Assembly (NCBI GenBank): GCA_050246755.1
Contig: JBFWVL010000001.1
Coordinates: 1,216,001 to 1,280,000 of the forward strand
Reading direction: 5' to 3'
Origin: Bacteriovoracia bacterium
GTDB lineage: Bacteria > Bdellovibrionota > UBA1018 > CAIPTA01
Length of the DNA stretch: 64,000 nucleotides
Below are positions 22,668 through 43,736 of the stretch, in pieces. Under the pieces are notes generated by a model. It saw only the letters and a program-made list of their open reading frames with translations. It searched no databases and was not told the DNA's origin. The position numbers and the translations under genes are program-made. Within the stretch, counting starts at the first letter, position 1; each line of letters begins with the position of its first letter.

Positions 22668-22676
22668 GTAGCTCTC

Positions 22677-24617: not shown

Positions 24618-24627
24618 GACGAAATCC

Positions 24628-25484: not shown

Positions 25485-25924
25485 TTCTTCGCCCTTTGAA
25501 TCAAGAGATAATCTTTGTCATACACGCGGCGCTCGTAGTCGGCCATTTCGTAAATATTCGAAAGCTTAATGGCGTCCTTCGGGCAGGCTTCTTCACAAAA
25601 ACCGCAAAAGCAGCAGCGTAAGATATCGATTTCGAATTTCACGGGATACTTCTCTTTATTGGCGCGCTCGCCGGCTTCAATGTGAATGCAATCGGCGGGG
25701 CAAATCGTGGGGCAAAGCATGCAGGCCGTGCAGTTCTCCACGCCATTTACGGTTTTGATGTAATGCTGGCCACGGTAACGCGGAGAATAACTACGGCGCT
25801 CCTCGGGATATTGGTACGTGATGTTTTTTCCGAAAAACCAGAACTTCATCGTGATCAGAAGCCCTTTGAAGAGCTCGATCAAGTAGAAGCGCTGCAGAAA
25901 TCCATGTTCGCGTTTAATCAGCAT
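25481..25924 (-). CDS. nuoI: NADH-quinone oxidoreductase subunit I
   Basis: TYQYPEE, CTACMLCPTICP and CCFCGFCEEACP. Confidence 0.95.
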   Translation of the reverse strand: MLIKREHGFLQRFYLIELFKGLLITMKFWFFGKNITYQYPEERRSYSPRYRGQHYIKTVNGVENCTACMLCPTICPADCIHIEAGERANKEKYPVKFEIDILRCCFCGFCEEACPKDAIKLSNIYEMADYERRVYDKDYLLIQRAKK

Positions 25925-25933
25925 AAATTTTCC

Positions 25934-27037: not shown

Positions 27038-27040
27038 GAC

Positions 27041-28459: not shown

Positions 28460-28473
28460 TTTATTCCTTTAAT

Positions 28474-29763
28474 CTAGTGGCTATAGCTCGAGCTTCCAAA
28501 AGGGCAACGCTTCTCGTTCACGTGTTGCTCGTATTCGGTTCGGAATTTTTTCACCATTGAACGCAACGGCCAGGCAGTGGCTTCGCCGAATGCACAGATC
28601 GTGGTTCCGTCCATGTTATTGCAAATGTCTTCGATCAGATCGAGGTCGCCAATATTCCCCTCGCCCCGCTCGAGGCGCAGGTGAAGATCTTTGAGCCACA
28701 TGGAGCCCTCGCGGCAAGGTGTACATTGTCCGCAGCTTTCCACTTGGTAAAAATGCGCGGTGCGGATCGCCACCTTGAGAATACAAGTAGCGTCGTCTAT
28801 TACCATAATGCCGGCCGAGCCGAGCATGGAACCAGCCTTCGCCAAAGAATCAAAATCCAGGTTCACACTGCATTCTTCGGCCGTGAGCACCGGCGAGGAG
28901 GATCCGCCGGGAAAAGCCGCCTTCAGCTTCCGGCCCTTCCAAATTCCCCCACAATCTTCGTTGATCAACTGCATGAGAGGGTAACCGAGGGGACGCTCGT
29001 ATAGGCCAGGACGGTTTACGTGTCCAGAAATACAGAACAGCTTCATGCCGTGATTGCGCTCGGGACCGAACTGCTTGAACCAGGCGGCGCCGCGATTAAT
29101 GATCATCGGAATGCAGGCTAAGGTTTCCACGTTATTCACTACCGTGGGGCAACCGAACAAACCGATAGCGGCCGGGAAAAAAGGAGGCTTGATTCGCGGT
29201 TCGCCCCGCTTTCCCTCGAGGGAATTCAGGAGCGCGGTTTCTTCTCCGCAAATATACGCGCCGGCCCCGCGATGCACGATCATGTCGAGCTGGTATCCCG
29301 TGCCGTTCACGTTTTTTCCAAGCAAACCGGCCTTATAGGCTTCTTCGATCGCTTTATCGAGGATCTTTGCCTCCTTCACGTATTCACCGCGGATATAGCA
29401 GTAAATCATATGAGCATTGATCGCCATCGCGGCGATGATGGCACCTTCGATCATGAGATGAGGCTGGTAAGCCATGATCGCGCGATCCTTAAAAGTGCCG
29501 GGCTCAGATTCGTCGGCGTTGATCACGAGATACTTCGGTTTATCTGAATTCTTCGGAATGAATCCCCATTTCGTGCCGCAAGGAAATCCGGCGCCCCCGC
29601 GCCCGCGAAGGCCGCTTTCCTTTACCTCGGCCAAAACTTTTTCTGGCCCCATTTCCACGGCCTTCGGAAGAGCCGTATAACCCGATTCATTCTTTTTATA
29701 GGCGTCGAGGCCTTCCACACCGGCCTGGCCGTAATATTTAGAGAATACGATTTCCTGCTGCAT
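28474..29763 (-). CDS. nuoF: NADH-quinone oxidoreductase subunit F
   Basis: GRGGAGFP, NADESEPGTFKDR, GAGAYICGEETA and SCGQCTPCREG..ICAFG. Confidence 0.98.
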   Translation of the reverse strand: MQQEIVFSKYYGQAGVEGLDAYKKNESGYTALPKAVEMGPEKVLAEVKESGLRGRGGAGFPCGTKWGFIPKNSDKPKYLVINADESEPGTFKDRAIMAYQPHLMIEGAIIAAMAINAHMIYCYIRGEYVKEAKILDKAIEEAYKAGLLGKNVNGTGYQLDMIVHRGAGAYICGEETALLNSLEGKRGEPRIKPPFFPAAIGLFGCPTVVNNVETLACIPMIINRGAAWFKQFGPERNHGMKLFCISGHVNRPGLYERPLGYPLMQLINEDCGGIWKGRKLKAAFPGGSSSPVLTAEECSVNLDFDSLAKAGSMLGSAGIMVIDDATCILKVAIRTAHFYQVESCGQCTPCREGSMWLKDLHLRLERGEGNIGDLDLIEDICNNMDGTTICAFGEATAWPLRSMVKKFRTEYEQHVNEKRCPFGSSSYSH

Positions 29764-30236
29764 TAGCGGAACTCCTCAAGCACTTTATCGAGCTGTTTCT
29801 CATCGAAATTCTCGTGGTAGTCGTCGTTGATCTGGCAAACCGGCGCCGTGCCGCAAGATCCGAGGCACTCCACTTCGGAAATAGTGAACATTCCATCCTT
29901 GGTGGTACCACCCAGAGAAACACCGCACTTCTTTTCCGCGCGGTGAATGAGGTCTTCGGAGCCGCGCAGCCAGCATGCGATGTTATTGCAAAACTGGAGG
30001 TTATACTTGCCCACCGGCTTGGTGTGGAACATGTGATAAAACGTAACCACTTCTTTCACCCGCGTTTTCGGAATCGCGAGAAAATCGGCCACATCTTGCA
30101 TCGTATCGTCGGAGATCCAGCCGCGGTCTTTTTGGGCCGCATGCAGAGCCGGTAAGAGCATGGCTAGCTTATTGGGATACATTCCTTGAATGCGGTCCAT
30201 CTCGGCGTAAAATTCGTTTCCAAATTTCTTTTCCAT
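29763..30236 (-). CDS. nuoE: NADH-quinone oxidoreductase subunit E
   Basis: VVTFYHMF and the 2Fe-2S ligands CNNIAC..ECLGSC. Confidence 0.96.
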   Translation of the reverse strand: MEKKFGNEFYAEMDRIQGMYPNKLAMLLPALHAAQKDRGWISDDTMQDVADFLAIPKTRVKEVVTFYHMFHTKPVGKYNLQFCNNIACWLRGSEDLIHRAEKKCGVSLGGTTKDGMFTISEVECLGSCGTAPVCQINDDYHENFDEKQLDKVLEEFR

Positions 30237-30237
30237 A

Positions 30238-31479
30238 TTAGCGGTCTAACTCCCCGGCAATAATATTCACGGAACCAATCACGGCGATCACGTCGCCCAC
30301 GTTTTCACCCTTCACCATCTCGTCTACGGGCTGGAACATGAAGAAAGAGGGGGCGCGGATACGCAAGCGGTAGGCCTTGGGACCGCCGCGGCTGATCGCG
30401 TAGAAGCCCATTTCGCCATTTGGGCCCTCCATAGGGCAGTACGCTTCTCCTGGAGGAACATCGAAACCTTCCATGAAAAATTTGAAATGGTGGATCAAGG
30501 ACTCCATCGAATTATAAACGCGTTCCTTTTCCGGAATCTTCACGCGTTTATCGTCGGCCCAGATTGGGCCTTTGGGCATTTTCTGCGCGATCTGGCGGAG
30601 CATGCGGATGGATTCGAAAATTTCCGCCATACGCACCAGATAGCGATCGTACACGTCGCCGCCCTTTGCCACCGGAACGTCGAACTCCAGCTCGCGGTAC
30701 GCAAGATAAGGGCGGTCCCTGCGTAGGTCGATATTTACGTTGGAAGCGCGGAGGCAAGGGCCCGTCATCGAGTAAGCGAGTGCCTGTTCGGCGGTGAAAA
30801 CGCCCACACCGCGGGTACGATCCACCCAGATACGGTTGTTCGTGAGCAGCTTGTCGAGCTCCTTAAAACATCTTTCGGTTTCATCAAGCCAAGCGTTCAG
30901 ACGGGGAATGAAGCCATCGGGCAAATCACCAGAAAGACCGCCCACGCGGGTATAGGTGGTGGTCAACCGTGACCCACAGAGACTTTCGATCAAACTATAA
31001 GCTTCTTCGCGCTGGTGGAATCCGATGAGAAAGTAGGTCATGGCGCCAAGGTCGAAGGCATTGATGCCCACGCAAATGATATGATCAATGATCCGCGCCA
31101 TTTCGCAAACCATCGTGCGAATCCACACGTTGCGCGGAGGAATCTCGATGCCCATGAGCTTCTCGATCGTGGTCACGTAGGCCACGTTATTCTGCAGGGC
31201 CGAACAATAATTCAGGCGGTCCGTATAGGGAATAAACTTATGGTAGGTTTTCACCTCGCCGAGCTTTTCCATCCCGCGATGCAAATAACCGATCTCACAT
31301 TTGCTCTCCTCCACCACTTCGCCGTTGAGCCGGCAAACGATACGAAGCGTTCCGTGGGTCGCCGGATGCTGGGGACCGATATTGATAAGCATCTGCGAAC
31401 TCTCGAAGATATCGCCATTATCGTCGTCTTCGAAGGCATCGCCTTTTCTAGGGAGCTGGAGTCCGGTTAGTTTATCCAT
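30238..31479 (-). CDS. nuoD: NADH-quinone oxidoreductase subunit D
   Basis: GPQHPATHG, GYLHRGMEK, DRLNY, FDLGA and C-terminal GELDR. Confidence 0.97.
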   Translation of the reverse strand: MDKLTGLQLPRKGDAFEDDDNGDIFESSQMLINIGPQHPATHGTLRIVCRLNGEVVEESKCEIGYLHRGMEKLGEVKTYHKFIPYTDRLNYCSALQNNVAYVTTIEKLMGIEIPPRNVWIRTMVCEMARIIDHIICVGINAFDLGAMTYFLIGFHQREEAYSLIESLCGSRLTTTYTRVGGLSGDLPDGFIPRLNAWLDETERCFKELDKLLTNNRIWVDRTRGVGVFTAEQALAYSMTGPCLRASNVNIDLRRDRPYLAYRELEFDVPVAKGGDVYDRYLVRMAEIFESIRMLRQIAQKMPKGPIWADDKRVKIPEKERVYNSMESLIHHFKFFMEGFDVPPGEAYCPMEGPNGEMGFYAISRGGPKAYRLRIRAPSFFMFQPVDEMVKGENVGDVIAVIGSVNIIAGELDR

Positions 31480-32132
31480 TATTCACGCTCCAATACGGTC
31501 TTGGCCGAGCCTGGAGAGCCGATTGTTTTTTCTTTACGCAGCTCGTGCCGCGACATTCTCTCCGCCGATGGATCAAGACCGAAGCTATCGGTGGATGCCG
31601 ATCCCTCGAAGCGCTGGTAGCGCTTAATGGGATAGTCCTTACGCTGGGGATGCCCCACCCAGCGCTCGTCGAGCAGAATGCGGTGCAGGTGGGGATGGCC
31701 CGAAAATCTCACGCCGTACATATCGAACACCTCGCGCTCCAGCCAATTGGCGGCCCTCCAGATGCCCACCACCGAGGGAGTTTCTTCTTCTTCTCTCACC
31801 CGCACCTTAATACGGATGCGGTCGTGGTTCTGCAGGGAAAAAAGCTGGTACACCACCACGAAGCGGTGCGCCCCGCCGGGGTTCTTCAAAGTGCCGAGGC
31901 CGTAGTCCGCGATCTTATCCAGCGGAGGATTATCATCGTAAGCGGTGAGATCAGAAAGGAAGCTGTACTCGAGGCCCTCTTCCGTGCGGATCGACTGCAA
32001 AAATTCTACGATTTTTTCTTTGCGCACGAAAAAAATAGGATCATCGGTATTTTCCGATACTACTTCCTCAATGGCATCGCCGTAACGGGCTTTGATCCTG
32101 TCGATTTTTTCCTTCGGAAAATCCATCTTCAT
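31479..32132 (-). CDS. nuoC: NADH-quinone oxidoreductase subunit C
   Basis: [33 protein letters not shown] and GHPQRKDYP. Confidence 0.95.
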
Positions 32133-32611
32133 TGCAGCATCGCCTTACTTTTTTTAATTTTTTCCTGGAGCCGCATCACGCCGTGAATCACGCCCTCAGG
32201 AGAGGGCGGGCAGCCGGGAATATAGATGTCCACCGGAATTACTTCATCCGCACCCTGCATAACACTGTAGGTATCGAAAATGCCGCCGGAAGAAGAACAA
32301 GCGCCCATTGCGATCACCCACTTAGGATCGGCCATTTGCTCATAGAGAGTCTTGAGCACGGGGCCCATCTTCTCCGTGATCGTGCCGGCGATGATCATCA
32401 TATCGCTCTGACGAGGAGAAAAGCGCACCACCTCGGCGCCGAAACGCGCAAGATCGTAGTCGGCCGAAAGCGTGGCCATCATCTCGATTCCGCAGCAGCT
32501 CGTACCGAAAGGATAGGGCCAGAGAGAGTTGGCTCTCGCCCAATTTACAAAATCTTCCAGTCTAGTAGTTAAAACATCCGGTGCGCCGTCTTTTGGCATA
32601 TCGCCCCCCAT
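32129..32611 (-). CDS. nuoB: NADH-quinone oxidoreductase subunit B
   Basis: [23 protein letters not shown] and IPGCPP. Alternative start at ATG 32599. Confidence 0.97.
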
Positions 32612-32636
32612 TCAGGCCGCTTCTGCGGCCCAGAAA

Positions 32637-32999
32637 CTATTCCCACTCGAGCCCGCCGCGGCGCCATTCGTATAAAAAGGCCACGGTAATCATGGTCATG
32701 AAAAATAGCATTACGCCGAGGATGAAAAAGTTCACCCCGAGAAATTTCCGGTACGCGAGGGCCCACGGAAAGAGCAGGGCTACCTCCACATCGAATAATA
32801 GAAAAGAAAGTGCCACGAGATAGAAGCGAACCGAAAAACGCTTTCTCGCGTCTCCACTAGGAGGTACGCCGCATTCGTATACGGAATTTTTGAATTTATT
32901 AGGTCGCTTTGGTCCCAAGAGAGCCGCGCCGAAAATTACGGCGAACGAGATGCCTAACCCCACGAGAAACAAAAGCAAAACCGGAAAATACCCGGACAT
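32637..32999 (-). CDS. nuoA: NADH-quinone oxidoreductase subunit A
   Basis: YECG, RFYLVALSFLLFDVE and YEWRRGGLEW. Confidence 0.96.
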   Translation of the reverse strand: MSGYFPVLLLFLVGLGISFAVIFGAALLGPKRPNKFKNSVYECGVPPSGDARKRFSVRFYLVALSFLLFDVEVALLFPWALAYRKFLGVNFFILGVMLFFMTMITVAFLYEWRRGGLEWE

Positions 33000-33041
33000 G
33001 CTGCACCCCCTAATGTGTGCAAAAAATTTAGCATGTTGGAT

Positions 33042-34496
33042 TTATTTAAGAAAGACTTTTGCAGTTTCGAAAAGTAAGGCAAATACCCGATGCCAAAGGA
33101 ATCCAAGCGCGGCGAGAGCAACGATTGCGACGGCTAACGAGAGCCACTCCAACGCGCCGTACCGAAACAGAACAAGAGGCGCAGTGTTTGTCGACGACGA
33201 AGCGCGTTGGCGGAATAGTAAATCCGTTCCCACGCGAATGGAAATTAGCGAAAGGGTGGCCACCAGCAGTACTTCGGCCGCGAGGAAAAATAGGGATTTC
33301 TGTTCCATCATCGCCGCCAAAAGATTCAATGCCATGGGAAATCCAGGTAAACCAGGAATGCAAAGCGGGCTGGCGAGCGCCAATAATAGCAATAACCCCG
33401 AAGAGCGAAACGTGCGCGCGGCACCGTAGACATCTTTTAAATTTTCGCCGCCGGCACTTTCTTGAAATCGTCCCCAGTTAAAACCCAAAAGACTGGTCCA
33501 AACAAAAACCGAGGCAAAAGCATAGGTAATGGAGGATGCACTAAGTACGGTCGGCAATGCACCGGCCACTAAAATGGCCGACCACTGCGCGCCCACTAGG
33601 GCACTGAAAAGACGCTTTGAATTTTCCTGCGTGAGCGCCACTAGGGCCAGCCAAAAGCCACCGCTAAGCCCACAGAGCTGTAACGTGCGCAGTCCCTCGG
33701 AAACTTCCCCGGGCCGAGCCTTGCCAAAAACCTCCACTCCCATTTTCCACAAAGCGAGGGTAACCGTTCCCTGCCAGATCACGGAAAGGGTTACCACTAC
33801 CGGCCAGGGCATTCCTTGGTCGCGATCCACGTGCGCAAAGTGAAATGGAAAGAGTCCGGCGGCCATCACGAAGGGCAGGCAAAGCGCAAACACCACGAGA
33901 AGCGCGCTGAGGGAATAAATCGATTGCGCGTGAAGAAAAGAAGAGATCACATCATAGTGAACGCCGCCGGCGACCACGGCCAGAGCCGTAGCCGCGCCAA
34001 ACCCACCCGCCATTACCAGAGAAGCTTGAATCCAGTACTTCAAGACGGCTTCCCCTTCACCGCGACCCCGAAACGCCAGGCCGCCGAGGAAAAGAGATAA
34101 CCACGATCCGCAAACCAGAAGGATAATCGAAAGGGTCATCTGTCGGGAAAGCAGCAAGAGATCACAAAGCATTACCAGCGTGGAAAGCAGGAAAAGAACT
34201 TCGTGTTTTCTTTTTGCGGGTAACTCTTTGGTGGCCACAACGCCGCGCCCCAGGAGAAGGGCCGCCACGAAAAGAGCCGCACGCGGCAAACGGAAAAGCG
34301 GTTGATCTTCCAGAAGCCCGAACCAGATTTGGGACTGATCGGCCGATTGGCCCACGGCCAAGGTTGCCATTGCCGCCAAAAATCCGAGGCTTGAAAGAAA
34401 TTCAATCGCCGTGCGCGAGCGAGAACTGCGGTTAAAAAGCAGCGCCACTCCTTGCGCTAGCGTGGCTAATCCGACGACTAAAATCGATAAGGGCAT
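33042..34496 (-). CDS. Divergent NuoN-like antiporter-fold subunit
   Basis: About 14 hydrophobic segments. EAVLKYW, FPFHFAHVDRDQGMP and ALTQENSKRLF align by eye to NuoN EASVKYF, PFHMWAPDVYEGAP and QTNLKRLM. Confidence 0.8.
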   Translation of the reverse strand: MPLSILVVGLATLAQGVALLFNRSSRSRTAIEFLSSLGFLAAMATLAVGQSADQSQIWFGLLEDQPLFRLPRAALFVAALLLGRGVVATKELPAKRKHEVLFLLSTLVMLCDLLLLSRQMTLSIILLVCGSWLSLFLGGLAFRGRGEGEAVLKYWIQASLVMAGGFGAATALAVVAGGVHYDVISSFLHAQSIYSLSALLVVFALCLPFVMAAGLFPFHFAHVDRDQGMPWPVVVTLSVIWQGTVTLALWKMGVEVFGKARPGEVSEGLRTLQLCGLSGGFWLALVALTQENSKRLFSALVGAQWSAILVAGALPTVLSASSITYAFASVFVWTSLLGFNWGRFQESAGGENLKDVYGAARTFRSSGLLLLLALASPLCIPGLPGFPMALNLLAAMMEQKSLFFLAAEVLLVATLSLISIRVGTDLLFRQRASSSTNTAPLVLFRYGALEWLSLAVAIVALAALGFLWHRVFALLFETAKVFLK

Positions 34497-34508
34497 GCCG
34501 ACCTCAAA

Positions 34509-35963
34509 CTAATTGCCATTTAATCCTTTCAGCAGGGCCGCCACCGATACTCCCATGGGCCCCAGAAGCAGGCTCGGCAAAACCCCTAAAACCAAAAGCA
34601 CCAGACCAAGCGGTGCAATCGCAAGAATCTCTTCCCAAACCAAGTCGTGAAACTCTCCGCGATCTCCATCACCGGCCCCGGCGTCGAGACGAAAAAACAT
34701 AATGCTCATCCCAGCAAAAGCAACCACCGGAACTGCTAGCGTAACCACGAGCAGCGGCCAGCTATGCACCCCGCTCAGCGACCAAATAACGAAAAGTACC
34801 CCGTAGAATCCAATGGAAACCGGCAGAAAGAGCGCAAAAAGGGAGGCCGCCGCCGTGCTGAGCGCAAAGGCAGGAAATTCACGGATTCTTTGGAGCGGTA
34901 AGGGGAATTTTCTTCTCTCGTGACAAGCAAGCACGAAGAGCATGAACGGAATAGAGAGCGTTTGGAAAAATAGGAGAATAAGAGAGCCGTGCCACCCTTT
35001 GGGATTTAAATTGAACAAGCCGATGGCGATGAACGAGCAAACGGTCTGCTGCAACCAAAATACGCGATCGCGCGCCTGGCGTGCGCCGAGAAAATTCAGC
35101 GCACAGTAAAGGGCGCCGATGGAGAAAAAGGCCAGAAGGTAATGGCCGAACCGCAAAAGCTCGCCGGGAAAAAGCTCCACCACGAAACGAGAGAGCAAAG
35201 TAAATCCCAGAAGCGGCTGCAGCGCTAGCGGCACCGCTTTTTCTACGGATTCCATTTCGAATATCCGGCGGGTGCTGCCGTGAAAGGGAAATATTCCGGC
35301 GCCGATCCCGAATGCCAGCAGCAATAATCCAAAGCCGATCGACCCCGGCAGTACCATATAGGTATCGCCCGATAGTCGGAACCACTCCCCGATGGAACCA
35401 CGGAATCCCTCCGAGAACGCCAGCACGCAAAGCAATAACGACAATGAAGCGATGGTAGAGAGAAAAGCCGCCTCGCGTACCGGCTCAATGCGATTTTCCT
35501 TTGCGTCTACCCCGGAAAATATAAATCGGGGGAGTAATGCGCCGGCAAAGAAAACAGAGAAAAGCAAAAGGTGATCAGCGCCTAGGGCACCGAGCACACA
35601 AGTCAAGTAGGCGGAAAGGCTGGCTACCGAGGCGCGGGATTTCTCGAGCATTCCCCTCGCCAGAAAGTGATAGCAAACGGTTACGGAAGAGACCGCTAGC
35701 GCCAATATTCCCGAATGAAATACCCAGCGGAGGCCCGTGTGATTCGACCAAGCGCTCTGGGCGAGAATCGCCGGAGAAAGCACGCTTCCGGCGTATTCGT
35801 TGGGCGAATAGAAGCCGATGGCCAAAAACAGAAAACAAACCCAAGAGAGAAGGTGCACCAACAACGAAAATGCCCAGAGCTTCTTCCCGCGCACGGGACC
35901 GCAAGCCGCCACCGTGACGAGCAGAGGCAAAAACGTAGCGATTAGTCCCGCCCAGCCTTTCAC
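34509..35963 (-). CDS. Divergent NuoM-like subunit (M2)
   Basis: DHLLLFSVFFAGALLPRF, IFPFHG, LPVSIGFYG and DLVWEEILAIAPL..LGVLP resemble NuoM. GTG start overlaps the upstream TGA (GTGA). Confidence 0.75.
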   Translation of the reverse strand: MKGWAGLIATFLPLLVTVAACGPVRGKKLWAFSLLVHLLSWVCFLFLAIGFYSPNEYAGSVLSPAILAQSAWSNHTGLRWVFHSGILALAVSSVTVCYHFLARGMLEKSRASVASLSAYLTCVLGALGADHLLLFSVFFAGALLPRFIFSGVDAKENRIEPVREAAFLSTIASLSLLLCVLAFSEGFRGSIGEWFRLSGDTYMVLPGSIGFGLLLLAFGIGAGIFPFHGSTRRIFEMESVEKAVPLALQPLLGFTLLSRFVVELFPGELLRFGHYLLAFFSIGALYCALNFLGARQARDRVFWLQQTVCSFIAIGLFNLNPKGWHGSLILLFFQTLSIPFMLFVLACHERRKFPLPLQRIREFPAFALSTAAASLFALFLPVSIGFYGVLFVIWSLSGVHSWPLLVVTLAVPVVAFAGMSIMFFRLDAGAGDGDRGEFHDLVWEEILAIAPLGLVLLVLGVLPSLLLGPMGVSVAALLKGLNGN

Positions 35964-37303
35964 AGGATCCCCCCGGCCAGCTGCGTGGCCACGACAATGA
36001 AACACATCAGGAAAACTCCATACCCAGCGAAAGCGGCCGGGGCCGACTCGAGAGAGGATTCCGCTCCCGGCTCAGGAGGACGATCATCCACAAAAATTCT
36101 TCGGCAGATATGCACGTTGGCGCAGAAGTAAAAAAACCAAAGCAAGCCGAATACGATGCCGTAGCTGATACCGAGATCGAGGGAACGAGCGCCGATCCCA
36201 CTGAAAATCTGAAACACCGGGGTGCCGGGCACTCCGAGGATAAGCGCGAAAAGAATTCCCACGAAAACCTTCTGTAGCGGGCGCACCACTTTGACCACCG
36301 AAGCATAAAGTACTAGCCCGGTGAATACTGGTACGAAGAGACAGGTAAAGTACGCGGATAGTACTAAGCTTGTCTTCGAGACTCCCACCGAAACCAAAAT
36401 GAGCGAAAAGAAAAAACTCGGTAGGCTTCCCAGCATTTTTCGCCTGGATCCGGCCGCAAAAAGACCGCTGATAGAAAAGGCGCAGCCGGAGATTCCCAGT
36501 AGATACAAAGCCAGCTTCTGCTTCCACCCCATATCGGGATAAACCACAGAAAAAAGCGTGGATATCTTCAAGGCCACCGCGCTGATGAAGGTAACCAAGG
36601 TAACGGTTACGCCTTCCGGAAGATTTTCCACCGCCATACTGAACCATCGGGACCATGGCGGAAGCGGAATCGAGAGCACTACAAGGCCCAGCCAGATAAA
36701 TAAACCGAGCGAAGAACCGGAGCGGGGGCCGAATAGCATATCCTTCGCGCCGAATTCCACCACGCCCCATACAATCATCAGCAGTCCCAACAAGAAGTAG
36801 AGGCTATACATACGGCGGGAAATTCTATCTCCCATCTCACGACTGGCCCCGGCAATGGCAAAGCGAATTAGGTAGAAGAACACCGCCGCCGCCAGCAAAA
36901 GCAAACCCCCAGTAGCTACCGCGTTGTTAGAAATTATAAAAAGGCTGGTAAACGCCTGCGCCAGCGATAGCAGCACGCTTACCACTCGCAGGCCGCCCGC
37001 CACCGCCCCCATCGCATGGGCAAAAAGAAAGCAGAGTTCTGCGGTGAGCAAAAAACCAAGCCGGAAAGAATCAAGCGAGAGCACGAATTCGAGCGGATAA
37101 CCATCAGCAAGCGAGGTAGAAATTTCAATTACCGCTCCGCCAAATACAACCGGGCGTAAAAGCACGATGAGAAGTAGAGCGCGAAGGCTCGACGCGATGA
37201 TCCCCGGGGAAACGAGCCTTTTGTGAAATGCATTCGGCAAAGGTATCGCGGCGGCGAAGGGCAAAACTATATACAGTAAGAATATTAGCCGTTCTAAGCT
37301 CAT
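35960..37303 (-). CDS. Divergent NuoM-like subunit (extra, M1)
   Basis: LSLDSF, IPLPPWSRW, SRRKMLG, LGVPGTPVF and RRIF resemble the NuoM/MrpD scaffold. ATGA overlap. Confidence 0.65.
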   Translation of the reverse strand: MSLERLIFLLYIVLPFAAAIPLPNAFHKRLVSPGIIASSLRALLLIVLLRPVVFGGAVIEISTSLADGYPLEFVLSLDSFRLGFLLTAELCFLFAHAMGAVAGGLRVVSVLLSLAQAFTSLFIISNNAVATGGLLLLAAAVFFYLIRFAIAGASREMGDRISRRMYSLYFLLGLLMIVWGVVEFGAKDMLFGPRSGSSLGLFIWLGLVVLSIPLPPWSRWFSMAVENLPEGVTVTLVTFISAVALKISTLFSVVYPDMGWKQKLALYLLGISGCAFSISGLFAAGSRRKMLGSLPSFFFSLILVSVGVSKTSLVLSAYFTCLFVPVFTGLVLYASVVKVVRPLQKVFVGILFALILGVPGTPVFQIFSGIGARSLDLGISYGIVFGLLWFFYFCANVHICRRIFVDDRPPEPGAESSLESAPAAFAGYGVFLMCFIVVATQLAGGIL

Positions 37304-39048
37304 TTAGCCCCCAGGAGAAAGAGCACTCCGGCGAAAAGCGTGAGCACGGTTCCAAAAAACAAATAAAAGCGAATATTTCCGGAATGAAGAAAACGCATCA
37401 GCCGAGAAAGCGAGGATCCGTAAGCGAGAAAACCACCCGGAAATTTCTCGGCAAAGAGCATCCGATCCGTCTCTTGCAGGGCACTGGCAGCGCGAATATT
37501 TATGGTTCCAGCTCTAAGCGCAATCCAGTCCATTCCTTTTTCGGGCGCAAGCACGGCCGCCTGATTCCAGCGGACAACCGCAGGATCGATTCGCGGAAAA
37601 AGATCTTCCATTTTCTTTTCCTTATTGGCGCTCCAAATACTAAGGCGAGAATTAGCTCCAAGGAGCATACCCGCCAACCCTCCCACCAGCAGGGCGGCCC
37701 CGCGCACTACAAGGGAAATATCGGATAAGAAATCTATCGGGAACTGAAGCAGCCCGGACAACCCATCGTAGGCCCGGAATAGAGCGGCCAGTTGAATCAG
37801 GATAACCAGTGACGCGGGCAAAACCGCGGAAGCGAAAGTAAAATTATTTTCCTTCTCTTTGTTCTGCCGCAGAGAACCCACCAATGCCTTCACGGCCACC
37901 AGAGAAAGCAGAAAAGTGAGTATTCCCATGATGGCTATTTTCAAGATCGTTTCCCGATTCTCGGTATGCGCCGAAGGTACGCTCGTAAAAGGAACCACGC
38001 CGGAGATGATTCCCAGCAAAAACAGTGTGGCTAAGAATATGAGCGCCGTTCGCCACGCTTGGGCACTTTGGCGGGCGAAGCGGAGCAAAAGGCTTAGGGC
38101 GTAACAAGAAAGCAGGCCCATCGCTTCGAAGGCTCCCCAGCTTAATTCTTCCGGCTTTAAAGACGAGAAGCGCAGAAAGAGGATGTATCCAAAAATGCCG
38201 AATAACATCCAAAAGCTGGCGCTAAGCGTGGTGGAGGCGAGAAAAGACAAAGCCGAAAACAGTGCCGTGGCAACTGCAAATAGCGCCGAAAGCGGGATCC
38301 ATAATTCGCCCGACATGTCCTCGTGGATAACTCTACCCAGCAGAAAAAAGGCCGTACCCGCCTGAATCAACGCGAGCGGAACATAGCGCCACTCGCTGAA
38401 ATTATGCTTAGAAAGCATGAATGCCATCACGTAAAGCACCATGCCGAGCAGAACGACGGAGCTATTGGTAAAGAAGCTCGCCGCGGTGAGGCCGAGCATC
38501 GCGATCAATCCGAGAAATAAAAAACTATTTCGCTTAAAATAGGAAATTCTCTCGAGCTCGCCCTCTGTGCCGCCCATTTCTAGGCTGAAAGAATGCAAGA
38601 GGAAAACGGTGATTTCGATGAACATCAGCGAAAGGAGCGCGTTCTCGCTCAAGTAGGCGAGGGCCAGGAATAAGAACGAACCGCTTAGGAATAGAAAGCG
38701 CAGCGTACCCCTCGCGCCGCCGAAGGAAGAAGCGCCGTCGAACATGACCAAACCAAGCAAAACGGAGGCAGAAAGAAAAATCCAAACGTACCGCACCCAA
38801 TACATGAGTAACGACGGCTCAAAATAGCCGGAAGTGTCGGTGGAAAGGGGCAATAGAAATTCCATTTTCACCGGAAGCTCAAACTGAAAAATCCCGATTA
38901 GGGAGGCGAGCAGCATCGTGCCGAACAAAATAAGACCGCCACGCTTCTCGGAATCGGAACGGCGATCGCTCTTAAGCGCAAACAAAACCAGCGCCGCAAG
39001 CGGGGCGCAGAATATAAGCAGTGGCACTACGATATTCCCAAAATTCAT
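37300..39048 (-). CDS. Divergent NuoL-like subunit
   Basis: SENALLSLMFIE (TM5 Glu), a long amphipathic C-terminal helix, and LMRFLHSGNIRFYL matching canonical LRLMHTGRLEHYL plus a final TM. Confidence 0.75.
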   Translation of the reverse strand: MNFGNIVVPLLIFCAPLAALVLFALKSDRRSDSEKRGGLILFGTMLLASLIGIFQFELPVKMEFLLPLSTDTSGYFEPSLLMYWVRYVWIFLSASVLLGLVMFDGASSFGGARGTLRFLFLSGSFLFLALAYLSENALLSLMFIEITVFLLHSFSLEMGGTEGELERISYFKRNSFLFLGLIAMLGLTAASFFTNSSVVLLGMVLYVMAFMLSKHNFSEWRYVPLALIQAGTAFFLLGRVIHEDMSGELWIPLSALFAVATALFSALSFLASTTLSASFWMLFGIFGYILFLRFSSLKPEELSWGAFEAMGLLSCYALSLLLRFARQSAQAWRTALIFLATLFLLGIISGVVPFTSVPSAHTENRETILKIAIMGILTFLLSLVAVKALVGSLRQNKEKENNFTFASAVLPASLVILIQLAALFRAYDGLSGLLQFPIDFLSDISLVVRGAALLVGGLAGMLLGANSRLSIWSANKEKKMEDLFPRIDPAVVRWNQAAVLAPEKGMDWIALRAGTINIRAASALQETDRMLFAEKFPGGFLAYGSSLSRLMRFLHSGNIRFYLFFGTVLTLFAGVLFLLGAK

Positions 39049-39063
39049 CCGTTAAAACTCCAG

Positions 39064-39384
39064 CTAATGCCGCAAACTATCTTCTTCATCCACATCCAGC
39101 GTTCCGCGAAATCGGCTACAGCGGTGCAATACCAGCAGACCCACCGCCACGAGCGCGGGAACCATTCCCAATGCCACTAACGAGAGCACGATGAGATCTC
39201 CGCCGCCGGAAGAAAAATATTGCGAGAATAAAAATCCACATGCCACCACGGCCTTAAGTGCGGTGGCCTGACCCACCAGCCCCCATGCCGCCACCCGGCG
39301 CAGCGCGATGGCCGAAAGGCCCGCCACAAATACGGCCAAGAGCAAGATCACGTTAATTTTGTTTGCCACCGAGGTTAAATCCAT
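39064..39384 (-). CDS. Divergent NuoK-like subunit
   Basis: ATG at 39384 (TAATG overlap) gives 106 aa with 3 TMs. FVAGLSAIALRR and GTLDVDE..SLR match the NuoK pattern. Confidence 0.75.
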   Translation of the reverse strand: MDLTSVANKINVILLLAVFVAGLSAIALRRVAAWGLVGQATALKAVVACGFLFSQYFSSGGGDLIVLSLVALGMVPALVAVGLLVLHRCSRFRGTLDVDEEDSLRH

Positions 39385-39878
39385 TACCGCTCCCTCCGCA
39401 CAAGGAAGAATCCTCCGGTAACGATTACGATCAGGAAAAGCAGCGGAATCACCGCTAGCAGCCAGTCGGAGGTCCAGATTTTTTCGTGGAGCAGAGACAA
39501 ACTTGGCGCCGGCGTCACCCCCGGTGGCATCAACTCCTCGAGCTCCAAGATCGCCAGCGCGCCGGTGACCACCGAGCAAAGGCCTAGCCATAGGAAAAAC
39601 AGGCGATACAGCCAATCGGCACGGCGATTGCGGGCCGGGCGCGCGGGAAGCAGTTCTTGGGTGCGAAAATAAAGATAAATAGCGAAATCGGCCGAAAGAA
39701 ATACCGCAATCATCATAATCCCAAAGTATCCGCCACTCATGAGTTCTACGGCCGCGCCCAAGCCAATGGAGCAAAGAATAGATCCCCAGAGTAAACGTTC
39801 GGTGGAATCGGCGGTGATCGCCATAATCGCGGAAATCAATGCCAACGCCAAACAGCTGCCAACAAAAAATGAGATCAT
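39384..39878 (-). CDS. Divergent NuoJ-like subunit
   Basis: 164 aa with 5 TMs, ALISAIMAIT, and C-terminal IWTSDWLL..IVIVTGGFFL. Sits between the I-like and K-like genes. Confidence 0.72.
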   Translation of the reverse strand: MISFFVGSCLALALISAIMAITADSTERLLWGSILCSIGLGAAVELMSGGYFGIMMIAVFLSADFAIYLYFRTQELLPARPARNRRADWLYRLFFLWLGLCSVVTGALAILELEELMPPGVTPAPSLSLLHEKIWTSDWLLAVIPLLFLIVIVTGGFFLVRRER

Positions 39879-40348
39879 CGTCTCACCTCGTAAGTACGAA
39901 TACGGGTGATGTCTTTATCGCTCTTCTGGCCGCCACCACGAAATACGGCGATTAAATCTTTCGTGCTCTCGGTAACGATTTCAAATTCTTTGGAATAGGA
40001 AAGGCTAGCCTCGGGACAGATCTCGATACAAACACCGCACGAAAAGCATTTTCCCAAATGAATATTGAATTCTTGCACGCGAATCGTACCGTCGCGCAGG
40101 TTCTCGGAAGTAAAATCAATTGCCTTCACCGGACAGGCCGGAACGCAAAGACCGCATCCACTGCACTTCGATAAATCATTGGTCACGTAGCCCTTATAGC
40201 TAGTGAACATGTCTAATGGGGCCTTGGCGGACACTAGGTCTGGATACTTTTCCACGACGCTTTTGTAACGATGCTTCGTACGGCGCAGAAAGCCGAAATT
40301 GATTTTCAGCGTGCTCTTGAGGGCGTTAATTACCTGCCTGACCTTCAT
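39875..40348 (-). CDS. NuoI-like 2[4Fe-4S] subunit
   Basis: EKYPD, CSGCGLCVPACP and CFSCGVCIEICP. ATG 40348 overlaps the upstream stop (ATGA). Confidence 0.88.
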   Translation of the reverse strand: MKVRQVINALKSTLKINFGFLRRTKHRYKSVVEKYPDLVSAKAPLDMFTSYKGYVTNDLSKCSGCGLCVPACPVKAIDFTSENLRDGTIRVQEFNIHLGKCFSCGVCIEICPEASLSYSKEFEIVTESTKDLIAVFRGGGQKSDKDITRIRTYEVRR

Positions 40349-41280
40349 CCGCGCACCCCCACCCAAACGGCTTCGAGAAAGAATCCGATGAGACATAGAC
40401 GCAATAGCCAGCGGGCCGCCAATTCACTGGCGTCGGCCGAGCGAATCTTAGGAAAACTAGCCTGCAGAAGGGTGAACACGAATATTCCGGCCGCCACTTT
40501 CAGCGGAAAGAGAACTTTCACGATGAGCCCGCTGGCCCCTCCGCAAAAAACGTATACCCAGAAACAAATCAAAGAGAATACCCACATTTTCTGCACGAAA
40601 ATCGTGATGTATTGCATCGAGTGATTGAGGCTCTGCTCATCTTGCAGCTGCACTGGACTTTCCGTGGCGAAAAGGAAAATGGAGCAGAAGGCGGTTATGC
40701 CGCAAAGGAAAAGACCCGGACTGCTCAGCAGCGCGTGATAGGGGAAATAAATCTGAAAATCCGAAATCGCGCTCAAGTTGAGCTGACCCACCCTTAGGGT
40801 TACGGCGAAAACCGATAGCAGCAATCCCGAAACTCCCATCGCCCGAAGCAAAAGCCGGCGGCGGCGGTCGAAACGCTCGCGTGAATCGGCGGTGGCATGC
40901 ACCAGCAGCGCCTCTAAAGCGGCCGCGATCATCGGAAAAAGCAGCAGGAGTGGAAGATCAATTTGATCGCCGCCCTCCGGGTAAGTTACCGCCAGCAAAG
41001 CCAGCAGGAATACTATGGGAAGAATTCGCCAAACCAAGGAGGCGAGACGTATCCGAAACGGCAGGGCCAATAAATCCGCCGGCTTCTTTTTCCGGGTTTT
41101 CTGAAAATCTTTCCAGACCTGAAAAAAATCCGTTTGCCCATGCCGGCCGGGCCCGTCGCGATGCTGCACGCGAGCAGCGACGAAGCGTTCGCAAAAAAGA
41201 AGGAAGAAGGTTCCCCCAAAGAGAAAGAGTAGCGAGCCCACGAGCGCCGCCCCGGCGAGCAAGAAATCTAGCGCACTCAT
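40345..41280 (-). CDS. Divergent NuoH-like subunit
   Basis: ERFVAARVQHRDGP, FFQVWKDFQK and SFPKIR match NuoH. The acidic TM5-6 loop is absent. Confidence 0.82.
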   Translation of the reverse strand: MSALDFLLAGAALVGSLLFLFGGTFFLLFCERFVAARVQHRDGPGRHGQTDFFQVWKDFQKTRKKKPADLLALPFRIRLASLVWRILPIVFLLALLAVTYPEGGDQIDLPLLLLFPMIAAALEALLVHATADSRERFDRRRRLLLRAMGVSGLLLSVFAVTLRVGQLNLSAISDFQIYFPYHALLSSPGLFLCGITAFCSIFLFATESPVQLQDEQSLNHSMQYITIFVQKMWVFSLICFWVYVFCGGASGLIVKVLFPLKVAAGIFVFTLLQASFPKIRSADASELAARWLLRLCLIGFFLEAVWVGVRG

Positions 41281-42380
41281 TTGTCTACCTCCGAAAAGGA
41301 GATATCGAGCGAATGAATCACGAGGAAAGCGTCTTCCGCGTGAATTCCGCGCAGCAGGCGCGGCAGCACCTGAACCGCCATAGCCGAAGGGCAGAAAAAA
41401 CTTACTTGCGACGGCTGCGAACGGCCATCGGATTCAACCATCGCGTAGATAGCTCCGCGAGGGCCCTCCACGCCACAAACTGCTTTTCCGGGCGCCGGGC
41501 GCACGTCTAGACCCACCCGGATGCGGTGGTTACCCGAAGGAATATGGCGAAATACGGATTCGATGAGCTGAGCCGACTGCAAAATTTCCCGCTTGCGAAT
41601 GTGTGCGCGGTCGAACGCGTCTCCCAGATAATTCCTCGAGGTGTCTAGCATCATCTCTGTGCCACGATAAGCGCCGTAGGGGCGCGAAACCCGAAGATCG
41701 CAGTCCGCTAAGCCGCTCGCACGCGCGTTAGGACCAGTAATATTCCAATTTTTAACCATCGCCGCATCTAACTGGCCCAAACCCCGGGTGCGCTTTTCGA
41801 AAAACGGGTGCGTAAGGAGGGAGCTTTCTAGATCCGGCAAAAATTCTCTTAAGCTGGCCACGGCTTTTTCGATTTTAAAAAACCATCCGTCGGTGGCGTC
41901 GCTGATCACTCCACCAAGGCAAATAGAGCCGAAACCAAGGCGCGAACCGCAATACATCTCAAATATATCCGCGAAGCGCTCGCGTTCCCGGAGGCAGTGA
42001 TTCATGATCGCAGCCTGCCCGGCAGCCCTGGCCAAATTTCCGTAGTAATGAAGATGGCTGGCAATTCGGTTGAGCTCGAGCAGAATTAGGCGAATCTGCT
42101 CAGACCGAGCCGAGATTTCTATGCGCAGCAAGTCTTCGCAGGCCGAGGCAAGAGCGAAATTGAAGGCCGGAGCCGCGAGATAATCGAGGCGATCCATGTA
42201 ATTTAGGGCTTGGGCTAAAGGTAGCTGCAATGCGATCGCTTCCAGGCTACGGCGTCCATAACCCACGGTCATCCGGGCGTCGGCCACTAAGCCACCGTCT
42301 TCTTCGAGCTTCAGCCCGAAAGCACCGATTCCCTGCGTTCCCGCAAGATACATAGGAGTATAATCTAAAGTGGTCGCCAC
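41277..42380 (-). CDS. Divergent NuoD-like subunit
   Basis: MDRLDY, IRLILLELNRIASHL, ERERF, CGSRL, TGPNARASG, EGPRG and SLDISFSEVDK. No NiFe CxxC motifs. Probable GTG start at 42380 after GAAAGGGA. Confidence 0.88.
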   Translation of the reverse strand: MATTLDYTPMYLAGTQGIGAFGLKLEEDGGLVADARMTVGYGRRSLEAIALQLPLAQALNYMDRLDYLAAPAFNFALASACEDLLRIEISARSEQIRLILLELNRIASHLHYYGNLARAAGQAAIMNHCLRERERFADIFEMYCGSRLGFGSICLGGVISDATDGWFFKIEKAVASLREFLPDLESSLLTHPFFEKRTRGLGQLDAAMVKNWNITGPNARASGLADCDLRVSRPYGAYRGTEMMLDTSRNYLGDAFDRAHIRKREILQSAQLIESVFRHIPSGNHRIRVGLDVRPAPGKAVCGVEGPRGAIYAMVESDGRSQPSQVSFFCPSAMAVQVLPRLLRGIHAEDAFLVIHSLDISFSEVDK

Positions 42381-42757
42381 GTGGCGTCCCTTTCTGGAAT
42401 CATGCCGGCGAACTCTACTCCGTTGAAAGTGCGTAGCTCTTCTTCCCACCAAAGACTAAACGGCCAGAGGGCGCTGGGGCGCGGAAAGGCCGAAGAAGGA
42501 GCAACTTCCAGAATAAAAAAGATCGGTTCATTTCCGCACGTAAGCAGCAGCTCGATGGAAAGATTCGTGCCCGCGCCGGCCGTCGATAACCCATGCAAAG
42601 CGGGGCGTTCGCCAGAGGGTAGCGCGCCCCAATGCTCGAGCAATTTTGCCAGCTCCGAAGTTCCCGCCTGGACGCGAGAAACTTTATCTCCGGCCGCAGG
42701 GGTGCCCGGCACCTTCACGATGCCTCCCCAAATATTTTTTTCTCCGCCTGATCTCAC
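42365..42757 (-). CDS. Divergent, C-terminally shortened NuoC-like subunit
   Basis: SALWPFSLWWEEELRTFNGVEFAG matches [27 protein letters not shown] overlap. Confidence 0.72.
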   Translation of the reverse strand: MRSGGEKNIWGGIVKVPGTPAAGDKVSRVQAGTSELAKLLEHWGALPSGERPALHGLSTAGAGTNLSIELLLTCGNEPIFFILEVAPSSAFPRPSALWPFSLWWEEELRTFNGVEFAGMIPERDATWRPL

Positions 42758-43203
42758 GACGCGGACCTCCGGATTTTTTCCTGCAATTTAATCAGCGCAT
42801 GAATCAATGACTCCGGTCGTGGAGGACAGCCCGGAATAAAAAGATCCACGGGAATTATGGCCTCGAGACCCGGGATACGATGTTTTCCTTCGGCCGAAAA
42901 CATTCCACCGGTGCTGGCGCAACTGCCAACGGCCACCACGAATTTTGGATCGCGCATCTCGGCGTAAATCTTTTTCAGTTCTTCGGCAATGCCGGGAGTT
43001 ACCGGGCCTGAAACAAAGAGCACATCGGCGTTACGATGATCGGTCACAATCCGGCAACCGAGCCTCTCCCAATCGAATCTCGGTCCGGAAGCAGCTTCCA
43101 CTTCCAGGGTACAGCAAGAAAGCCCCACATGATAAACCCATAACGAATCCGCGAGCGCGGATTTTGGCTGAGAGGGAGCGGATTCTTTTTGGATCTCCAT
43201 CAT
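42754..43203 (-). CDS. NuoB-like N2 [4Fe-4S] subunit
   Basis: SLW..GLSCCTLE, RFDWERLG, PKFVVAVGSCASTGG and PVDLFIPGCPPRPE. Confidence 0.92.
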   Translation of the reverse strand: MMEIQKESAPSQPKSALADSLWVYHVGLSCCTLEVEAASGPRFDWERLGCRIVTDHRNADVLFVSGPVTPGIAEELKKIYAEMRDPKFVVAVGSCASTGGMFSAEGKHRIPGLEAIIPVDLFIPGCPPRPESLIHALIKLQEKIRRSAS

Positions 43204-43577
43204 TGGTTTTCCTTATCGGGCCACTCGAGATTGTCTATCCACTTCAGGTAGCTTTTACGGCCGCCGTACCAAAGTAGGGCCAGCATCAACGCGGGAAAAA
43301 TCAAAACCTTTCCCATCACCAGCCAGCGGTCGTGCATTTCGAGGGAAACTATTTTTTGCCGGTACGAAGCCCACATCGGCAAAGAGAGTGCGATTCCGCA
43401 CCAGAGCATTAGCAGCCAAAGAACGTGATAGAATGAACGGAACGCACCTTCCGGGGCGCCGTTCCCTGGCTCACGAATTCCCTGAACCTTTTCGAGACGA
43501 TCCCATAGCACGAGCACCAAAATGGCCACAAAAAGCAGCACTGCTGGAATTAAAAAGAGGAGAAATCTAGAATACAT
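43200..43577 (-). CDS. Divergent NuoA-like subunit
   Basis: Three TMs with SFYHV..LPMW and WYGGRKSYLKW (cf. YEWRRGGLEW). ATG 43577 gives 125 aa; alternative starts at 43616 and 43622. Confidence 0.72.
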   Translation of the reverse strand: MYSRFLLFLIPAVLLFVAILVLVLWDRLEKVQGIREPGNGAPEGAFRSFYHVLWLLMLWCGIALSLPMWASYRQKIVSLEMHDRWLVMGKVLIFPALMLALLWYGGRKSYLKWIDNLEWPDKENQ

Positions 43578-43679
43578 CTGCCGTCCTTGAGTTTCAGTGC
43601 CTCTTCCCACAGCCATATTCACCCGGCGGCAATGCCGATCCGGATCCTTGAAATGCCTAATGTGAGAACTGACCTAGGA

Positions 43680-43708
43680 AGCGTAAGAACTTTGCAGGAA
43701 CGTGTCAA
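43680..43708 (-). promoter_or_regulatory. sigma70-type promoter driving the divergent nuo-like cluster
   Basis: Minus strand TTGACA (43708-43703)-N17-TACGCT (43685-43680) in the divergent gap with mfd. Confidence 0.62.
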
Positions 43709-43736
43709 GAATTATGCTGTAATATGGGATAGTTAG

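Follow-up and report, generated by a model that had tools for sequence, protein, structure and literature searches.

A divergent twelve-gene complex I-like operon beside the canonical nuo operon of a Bacteriovoracia bacterium: a candidate non-pumping pseudo-complex I

INTRODUCTION

Complex I is among the most conserved of molecular machines, and the axis of lysine and glutamate residues that runs through its membrane arm is regarded as indispensable. In the antiporter-like subunits, the Glu of transmembrane helix 5 (TM5), the Lys of TM7, the Lys or His of TM8 and the Lys or Glu of TM12 are what we take to be the proton-pumping residues; likewise, the membrane carboxylates of NuoH, NuoA and NuoK presumably constitute the E-channel, and the His residues of the NuoD β1–β2 loop, together with its Tyr and Asp, are assumed here to form the quinone site. 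The present work concerns a stretch of 64 000 nucleotides (nt) from a Bacteriovoracia bacterium of the phylum Bdellovibrionota (GenBank assembly GCA_050246755.1, contig JBFWVL010000001.1, positions 1,216,001 to 1,280,000; hereafter, the window), in which a second operon, made up of twelve genes resembling those of complex I, lies next to a canonical nuo operon and may specify a complex I-like assembly that no longer pumps.

Several described systems approach this arrangement. Genomes with two complex I isozymes were described by Spero et al. (2015; PMC4453560). The 2M-type complex I (Nitrospira; Chadwick et al. 2018) has an extra NuoM and, with it, four antiporter-like subunits (PMC9040806); the same account credits the 2M complexes with additional pumping capacity and with a 26-residue insertion in the lateral helix of NuoL. 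For the Ehr complexes, the affiliation given is with the group 4 hydrogenases, and Mrp-like subunits are the assumed route of charge translocation (PMC6349859); further nuo clusters of the phylum are described in a Peredibacter paper (PMC13147790). One of the types in the latter, a cluster of nuoAHJKLMN only, was not found in the genome studied here. Moreover, a survey of the literature on degenerate or pseudo complex I, and on nuo clusters of the Bdellovibrionota, returned no description of the operon reported below.

The four-antiporter layout of the 2M type is shared by this operon, whereas the pumping residues are gone from it (a comparison made against the published description of the 2M type only). 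Its likeness to Ehr is that of a superfamily member whose large subunit has neither NiFe ligands nor the normal acceptor site; in contrast to Ehr, again as described, it nests within Nuo, with NuoB and NuoD as its best NCBIfam models and Nuo systems as its nearest relatives, and none of A, C, I, J and K is missing from it. The closest comparison within the window is with the canonical 14-subunit complex I encoded at 19598-32999: all 11 core subunits other than E, F and G are shared, in the same order, as are the iron–sulphur (Fe-S) ligands of NuoB and NuoI. However, the identity between corresponding subunits is only 19-41%, the quinone-site His and Asp, the E-channel carboxylates and the Lys/Glu of the antiporter-like subunits have been lost, and there is no N-module.

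RESULTS

Organization of the second operon

Twelve open reading frames (ORFs) run along the minus strand from 43577 to 33042, with ATG or GTG starts and zero internal stops, and their products are relatives, in order, of NuoA-B-C-D-H-I-J-K-L-M-M-N; they are named A2 to L2, Ma2, Mb2 and N2 here. Given that N2 denotes both the NuoN-like subunit and the terminal Fe-S cluster bound by NuoB, we write 'N2 subunit' for the one and 'cluster N2' for the other. Most of the twelve starts are preceded by a GGAGG-like Shine-Dalgarno motif, and the junctions between successive genes, from A2 to N2, measure -4, -4, -16, -4, -4, -4, -1, +15, -4, -4 and +12 nt. Five of the starts were refined by orthologue comparison, namely those of A2 (43577), D2 (42380), I2 (40348), K2 (39384) and Mb2 (35963). 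No nuoEFG is present between D2 and H2, and the only copy in the window sits in the canonical operon. The gene models, the junctions and the homology of the individual subunits agree with the initial annotation of the window, which had been made from the sequence alone and recorded twelve intact, coupled ORFs in nuo order without nuoEFG. The assignments are as follows, with the evidence for each.

43200..43577, minus strand: A2, NuoA-like, 125 aa; no Pfam or NCBIfam match; hhalign probability 43.5%, E 2.4e-4
42754..43203, minus strand: B2, NuoB-like, 149 aa; Pfam Oxidored_q6, 1.4e-28
42365..42757, minus strand: C2, short NuoC-like, 130 aa; no Pfam match; hhalign probability 96.6%, E 6.6e-10
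41277..42380, minus strand: D2, NuoD-like, 367 aa; Pfam Complex1_49kDa, 7e-49; NCBIfam NuoD, under cut-off
40345..41280, minus strand: H2, NuoH-like, 311 aa; Pfam NADHdh, 3.5e-15
39875..40348, minus strand: I2, NuoI-like, 157 aa; two 4Fe-4S motifs (Pfam/NCBIfam)
39384..39878, minus strand: J2, NuoJ-like by position, 164 aa; operon position and a weak fold match
39064..39384, minus strand: K2, NuoK-like, 106 aa; Pfam Oxidored_q2, 2.2e-6; hhalign probability 85.8%
37300..39048, minus strand: L2, NuoL-like by fold, 582 aa; AlphaFold2 (AF2) model and Foldseek
35960..37303, minus strand: Ma2, first NuoM-like, 447 aa; family profile against E. coli NuoM, 2e-6; hhalign probability 92.7%
34509..35963, minus strand: Mb2, second NuoM-like, 484 aa; NCBIfam NuoM, 4.5e-22, under cut-off
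33042..34496, minus strand: N2 subunit, NuoN-like, 484 aa; NCBIfam NuoN, 1.9e-15, under cut-off

The matches of B2, D2, H2, I2 and K2 to the Nuo models of Pfam and NCBIfam mostly fall under the curated NCBIfam cut-offs.

Antiporter-like subunits

The key positions, six each in NuoM and NuoN, were mapped by profile–profile alignment with hhalign; the canonical protein and five outgroup proteins served as the control, in which all 12 key columns are conserved (6/6). For the N2 subunit and Mb2, the profile matches are strong: the N2 subunit family profile matches NuoN in the Protein Data Bank (PDB) at 5.8e-20 (hhalign probability 100%), and that of Mb2 matches ND4/NuoM at 1.6e-25 (hhalign probability 99.9%). 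In the former, the TM5 Glu, TM7 Lys, TM8 Lys and TM12 Lys are all lost, the TM8 column being occupied by Gln in 7/9 sequences; in the latter, the columns of the TM5 Glu, TM8 Lys and TM12 Glu are unconserved, and that of the TM7 Lys reads GGSNRRIKQ. The sole key residue to survive in either protein is the TM7 His, present in 8/9 sequences of Mb2 and in 9/9 of the N2 subunit. Across both proteins, the TM5, TM7 Lys, TM8 and TM12 columns are variable and mostly hydrophobic, and the profile-versus-PDB alignments agree on this.

Ma2 has no Pfam or NCBIfam match, and a search of 1.84 billion representatives yields 27 relatives, all of them non-canonical. It was aligned in the local mode of hhalign; the global mode gave junk alignments for both Ma2 and L2. 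Its key positions in TM5, TM7 and TM12 have been lost. Both Ma2 and Mb2 align best with NuoM, such that two M-type genes lie between those for the L- and N-type subunits.

The assignment of L2 comes from its predicted fold. The protein has no Pfam or NCBIfam match, its profile finds no PDB sequence at E<=1, its hhalign match to canonical NuoL spans just 24 C-terminal columns (probability 0.5%), and a comparison with a 6-sequence NuoL alignment by the same program is not significant. The AF2 model, calculated from 26 sequences, has a predicted local distance difference test score (pLDDT) of 80.9 and a predicted template-modelling score (pTM) of 0.79, and NuoL/ND5/NdhF chains account for 49/50 of its top Foldseek matches in the PDB (E ~1e-8, template-modelling score ~0.55). 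A long C-terminal helix and an anchor helix are predicted, with lateral helices 489-531 and 541-554 ahead of the anchor and low confidence for 530-560; no lengthening of the transverse helix is evident. At 582 aa, L2 is shorter than canonical NuoL (646 aa), which is in turn shorter than the outgroup NuoLs (665-760 aa).

Taken over nine genomes, conserved charges in a hydrophobic context amount to about one per membrane subunit, as against 4-8 in canonical and outgroup L, M and N subunits.

Membrane subunits A2, H2, J2 and K2

The carboxylates of the E-channel have fared no better. In H2 (family profile against E. coli NuoH, 2.8e-22), the canonical SYELA motif has had its Glu replaced, segments of the TM5-6 and TM7-8 loops have been deleted, and no Glu is invariant. 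In A2, for which the weak hhalign match to canonical NuoA is confined to TM2-3, the acidic pair of the canonical FDVE motif has been replaced and the TM1-2 loop deleted. Both canonical TM Glu residues of K2 are replaced or absent; a new Lys, Lys44 in TM2, is invariant in 9/9 genomes. J2 is NuoJ-like by position: Pfam, NCBIfam and an hhalign comparison with NuoJ reveal no homology (the last being not significant), and its AF2 model (pLDDT 72.9) has NdhG/NuoJ/ND6 chains as all of its top 19 Foldseek matches, but with E values of 0.024-0.75. Its sole invariant residue is Asp64, which lies in a hydrophobic helix, and, together, Lys44 of K2 and Asp64 of J2 may form an ion pair at the former E-channel site.

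The loss of energy-coupling residues that had been noted by eye thus holds for H2, A2, K2, Mb2 and the N2 subunit, for D2 (see below) and largely for Ma2; in L2, a single TM5-like Glu, placed by the predicted helices, is invariant.

Peripheral-arm subunits B2, C2, D2 and I2

D2 carries the changes that bear most directly on the quinone site. The loop that reads GPQHPATHG in the canonical protein has become AGTQGIGAFG-like and 3 residues longer, with both His residues gone in 9/9 sequences, and the Asp of the canonical FDLGA motif is likewise replaced in 9/9. The Tyr of YxDR is mostly retained, although it is Phe in G007 and in the database sequence P0120. D2 is also without a segment of ~25 residues that is present in canonical NuoD. 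No Cys is found at the positions of the NiFe ligands, that is, at the N-terminal DR(L/V)DY or the C-terminal DISxSEVD, and a hydrogenase, considered as a candidate identity for the complex, is thereby ruled out.

By comparison, the Fe-S subunits are well preserved. B2 is 41% identical to canonical NuoB and, in the window, has all 4 Cys of the cluster-N2 ligand pattern CC..C..C; I2 retains all 8 of its Fe-S Cys in 9/9 genomes, together with a conserved basic C-terminal tail. The two proteins of the window between them present all 12 Fe-S Cys, the ligands of clusters N2, N6a and N6b. The four ligands of cluster N2 are retained in 8/9 genomes, the exception being G002, in which B2 (gene at L011 16564-16998) reads SFSG and PGNPP where the others read SCC and PGCPP. 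Among the 120 best database matches to the B2 profile, of which ~100 are members of the B2 family and 19 cluster with canonical NuoB, 104 keep all of these ligands and 16 (1 of them a partial sequence) lack at least one; the patterns among the 16 include CSCS, YSCS, FSCN and GDSN. In a quick tree, as opposed to a careful phylogenetic search, 15 of these 16 fall within the genus as a single clade, in which 2-4 of the 4 ligands are lost, with a support of 97 in the Shimodaira–Hasegawa-like approximate likelihood-ratio test (SH-aLRT). The statement that all Fe-S ligands remain is consequently correct for the window (12/12 Cys), but not for the family (16/120 B2 matches, and G002).

Despite the progressive replacement of these ligands, B2 stays conserved across the clade, which comprises 15 clusters. 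Within G002, the one clade member that was examined at the level of the locus, none of the other eleven genes is disrupted, the 8 Cys of I2 are all there, and the proportion of nonsynonymous differences (pN) is no higher than in the sister genomes. The intact operon of G002 and the conservation of B2 across the clade suggest that whatever selection keeps there does not need cluster N2.

C2 is the least constrained of the twelve genes, with a pN of 0.46-0.52. Its hhalign match to canonical NuoC spans the C-terminal 55 residues; the N-terminal part is nearly unconstrained, and the gene is shortened in G007.

Distribution, conservation and selection

The operon was found in two families of one order. 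The L2 protein is present in 8/8 other genomes of the same family and in 0/32 genomes from other families of the class. When the Ma2 profile was run over 401 genomes of the phylum, strong, near-full-length matches were obtained in the same family (7/7) and in 2/2 genomes of a second family of the same order; matches in 66 other genomes were weak (E 2e-18 to 1e-5) and mostly corresponded to ORFs of canonical NuoM/N size. The initial annotation proposed a search for orthologous clusters, and this revealed the same 12 genes, open and of similar sizes, between mfd and canonical nuoA in 8/8 of the relatives examined at the locus (G002, G003, G004, G006, G007, G008, G009 and G010, from two families of one order of Bdellovibrionota). 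Of the 108 genes expected over the nine genomes, 107 are complete and open; the other, in G004, is truncated by the end of its contig. Closer relatives, at 72-91% identity, are known as sequences in the protein databases.

The divergence involved is considerable: within the family, identity to the window is 66-97% for the canonical subunits and 23-76% for the divergent ones; the neighbouring mfd, at 35-62%, has diverged to about the same extent as the second operon. The proportion of synonymous differences (pS) is saturated even within the genus (0.64-0.91), which limits the use of dN/dS, the ratio of nonsynonymous to synonymous substitution rates (omega), to those cases where dS is computable: in these, omega is 0.06-0.41 for the divergent genes and 0.02-0.10 for the canonical ones. 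The corresponding pN values are 0.19-0.41 (with C2 above this range) and 0.03-0.20. As pN lies far below the saturated pS, the second operon appears to be under purifying selection and not to be decaying; the 107 open genes likewise argue against decay, since many stops would be expected in so long a sequence if it were free of constraint. The view that these genes have been selected and not left to decay, put forward from the single sequence, is thereby borne out; stops and frameshifts in relatives, which would have spoken for decay, were looked for in the 107 complete genes and none was found. Additionally, the family has invariant motifs of its own: FPFHFxxIDRDHGxPW in the N2 subunit, PWSRW in Ma2, and the C-terminal tails of A2, K2 and I2.

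In the public records, the relatives of B2, D2, H2, I2 and K2 are named as ordinary Nuo subunits, with one D2-type relative appearing as 'subunit D-related protein'; for L2, 5/22 of the relatives are called 'hypothetical protein' and the rest are nameless.

Ancestry

The nearest normal counterparts of the second operon belong to 11-subunit Nuo systems that lack E, F and G. Five such loci from metagenomes (L035, L038, L041, L046 and L048) have the order A-B-C-D-H-I-J-K-L-M-N, with a short NuoC, no E, F or G and a single M, and, with the NuoD of Alicyclobacillus (P0166), they share with our operon the gene order, the absence of nuoEFG and the shortness of NuoC and NuoD. These outgroups keep the NuoD loop His residues and all of the NuoL/M/N Lys and Glu residues examined (6/6), and have one M gene, whereas the Bdellovibrionota operon has lost those residues and has two M-like genes. 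The nearest normal NuoDs show 32-36% identity to D2, as against 28% for the neighbouring canonical NuoD; moreover, these nearest NuoDs share its deletion of ~25 residues, yet in them the Asp and the His residues of the loop are still present. The shared deletion and the higher identity point to an ancestry among the EFG-less Nuo systems and not to a copy of the neighbour; indeed, a recent local duplication of the neighbouring operon is ruled out by this pattern. On these comparisons, the second operon descends from an EFG-less 11-subunit Nuo that stood in tandem with a 14-subunit one, and both the duplication of M and the loss of residues appear to postdate the EFG-less ancestor. Judged in this way, it belongs by descent to the Nuo family, in its EFG-less branch, but on the residues that it retains it would not be classed by function as an energy-converting complex I.

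One of the outgroup loci has a tandem arrangement of its own: in L035 (2063-13746), a metagenome contig from an unrelated organism, an EFG-less nuoA-N is followed directly by a second nuoA-B-C, all with normal-looking sequences. Side-by-side Nuo operons are, therefore, not unique to this lineage.

Genomic context and expression signals

The features that flank the second operon are as follows.

33000..33041, minus strand: spacer of 42 nt between the N2 gene and canonical nuoA; GGGGG Shine-Dalgarno-like motif; no terminator-like site
43578..43736, minus strand: upstream region shared with the divergent mfd; TTGACA at 43708-43703, weak -10
19598..32999, minus strand: canonical nuoA-N operon (context only); strong Pfam matches; all key residues present
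43737-47186, plus strand: mfd (transcription-repair coupling factor); divergent from A2

Canonical nuoA begins 42 nt downstream of the N2 gene, and the corresponding spacers in the relatives, as computed from coordinates, are 42-234 nt. The short spacer and its lack of a terminator suggest read-through into canonical nuoA-N, and the second operon is, on this evidence, probably co-transcribed with the canonical complex I genes that follow it. The suggestion that the twelve genes have a promoter of their own was not substantiated: there is only the TTGACA with its poor -10, and a consensus scan of 32500-44000 found 0 promoter-like sites. Divergent mfd lies upstream of the second operon in 7/7 relatives checked, and the arrangement of mfd, divergent nuo and canonical nuo is syntenic across the order.

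A genome-wide search found no further NuoD homologue beyond D2 and the canonical protein, and no further antiporter-like gene at the Pfam level; the totals for the genome are 2 NuoD homologues, and 3 Pfam antiporter-like genes plus the weak match of Mb2. Within the canonical operon itself, NuoG (27041-28459, minus strand) is just 472 aa in length: the N-terminal Fe-S domains are present, and the molybdopterin-like domain is a remnant (Pfam Molybdopterin match, residues 421-466). The NuoGs of the relatives are equally short (461-481 aa).

DISCUSSION

We propose that the second operon encodes a non-pumping 'pseudo-complex I' that assembles, usually with Fe-S clusters, is co-expressed with the canonical enzyme, and has a structural or regulatory role; the proposal is a tentative one, and we would put its probability at roughly 0.42. 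The peripheral module, formed by B2, C2, D2 and I2, would sit on a membrane arm composed of H2, A2, J2, K2, L2, Ma2, Mb2 and the N2 subunit, and clusters N6a, N6b and N2 would still be carried in most lineages. Ion translocation by the known mechanism would have been lost, as would the canonical quinone-reduction machinery, and the selected function would be a structural or regulatory one, exercised beside the active complex I; slow electron transfer, uncoupled, might be a secondary activity. Assembly, co-transcription, the absence of pumping and the role as a scaffold or partner of canonical complex I are what we infer from the homology, gene order, conservation, selection, residue losses and ancestry shown above. 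A fuller version, in which a twelve-subunit complex has turned pseudoenzyme and has been selected over order-level time as a co-transcribed partner of complex I, with cluster N2 having become dispensable in one clade, asks for more, and we advance it with correspondingly greater reserve.

A number of observations weigh against a pseudo-complex I. The 8 Cys of I2 are kept in 9/9 genomes, the ligands of cluster N2 in 8/9 genomes and in 104/120 of the best matches, and the Tyr of the quinone site for the most part, which suggests that electron transfer is still of importance to most lineages. The same residues, including the 12 Fe-S Cys in the window, would be expected of an uncoupled electron conduit, in which a ferredoxin- or flavodoxin-like donor feeds the Fe-S chain, the electrons pass to quinone or to some other acceptor, and the membrane arm is an anchor; the EFG-less ancestry is also in keeping with this, as the donor in those systems is not NADH via NuoF. 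We regard such a conduit as unlikely, if deserving of serious consideration: the His pair of the NuoD loop and their partner Asp are lost, deletions have removed the cavity-lining loops of NuoH and NuoA, B2 is kept by a clade without cluster-N2 ligands, G002 keeps all twelve genes, and a mere anchor leaves the selection on four large antiporter-like subunits unexplained. The charges that persist in the membrane also count against the pseudo-complex. In L2, the invariant Glu145 lies in a hydrophobic helix that corresponds to the fifth TM helix of the model, and in 6/7 genomes helix 195-213 ends, where the TM7 break is predicted, in a Lys or Arg, such that the label 'de-energised' is least secure for this subunit. 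Lys44 of K2 and Asp64 of J2 are invariant new membrane charges, and Ma2 has a mostly basic residue (K246 here) that aligns with the TM8 Lys in hhalign, but that hmmsearch places 5 residues further downstream, so that the site is ambiguous. These charges in L2, K2, J2 and Ma2 give a rewired ion path some, if low, probability. The corresponding proposal, in which the complex still converts energy through a rewired network of charges, could draw on Glu145 and K/R214 of L2, the Lys44/Asp64 pair, His219, Asp224 and Lys251 of the N2 subunit and the basic residue of Ma2, all of which are invariant or nearly so and in a hydrophobic context; moreover, the alignment registers around TM8 differ by 5-8 residues between methods. 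Nevertheless, the paucity of conserved charges, about one per subunit in place of the 4-8 of canonical and outgroup proteins, and the hydrophobic and variable character of TM5, TM7 and TM12 in the N2 subunit, Mb2 and Ma2, with no continuous axis evident, make this quite improbable.

Could the operon instead specify a second isozyme, one that oxidises NADH but does not pump, and that borrows the single NuoEFG encoded downstream? There is one nuoEFG for two sets of the other subunits, within one likely transcription unit, and such a possibility is raised for another genome by Spero et al. (2015; PMC4453560). However, the closest relatives with normal sequences are operons that likewise have a short NuoC and NuoD and that lack EFG, from which it follows that the lineage probably never docked NuoEFG, and C2 is truncated and poorly conserved; we consider borrowing very unlikely. 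We attach as little weight to a transporter, or other membrane machine, that re-uses the antiporter-like fold for a different substrate: the new family-specific invariant motifs of the N2 subunit and Ma2, and the tails of A2, K2 and I2, would be compatible with it, but no accessory or substrate-related genes occur in or beside the operon, and the full Q-module has been retained. Finally, strong divergence, the nearly unconstrained N-terminal part of C2 and its short form in G007, and the decay of the cluster-N2 ligands in one clade might be taken as signs of a duplicate heading for loss. This reading is already largely refuted, and we give it hardly any credence: the 107 complete genes show no stops or frameshifts across nine genomes at 22-76% identity, pN is well under the saturated pS, and gene lengths and Shine-Dalgarno-like motifs have been kept.

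Whatever its activity, the operon is unusual in that nearly the whole of the Lys/Glu axis has gone, along with the His and Asp of the quinone site, yet its twelve subunits have long been kept under selection. If the complex assembles as we propose for a pseudo-complex I, it would constitute a ready-made 'charge-less' complex I, on which one could test whether the lateral helix, the broken helices, the geometry of the E-channel and similar structural features occur independently of pumping. There is also a warning here to annotators, as the divergent B, D, H, I and K subunits carry ordinary Nuo names, and those relatives of L2 that bear a name go as 'hypothetical protein'. More generally, such an assembled complex would open the question of non-bioenergetic roles for the complex I scaffold.

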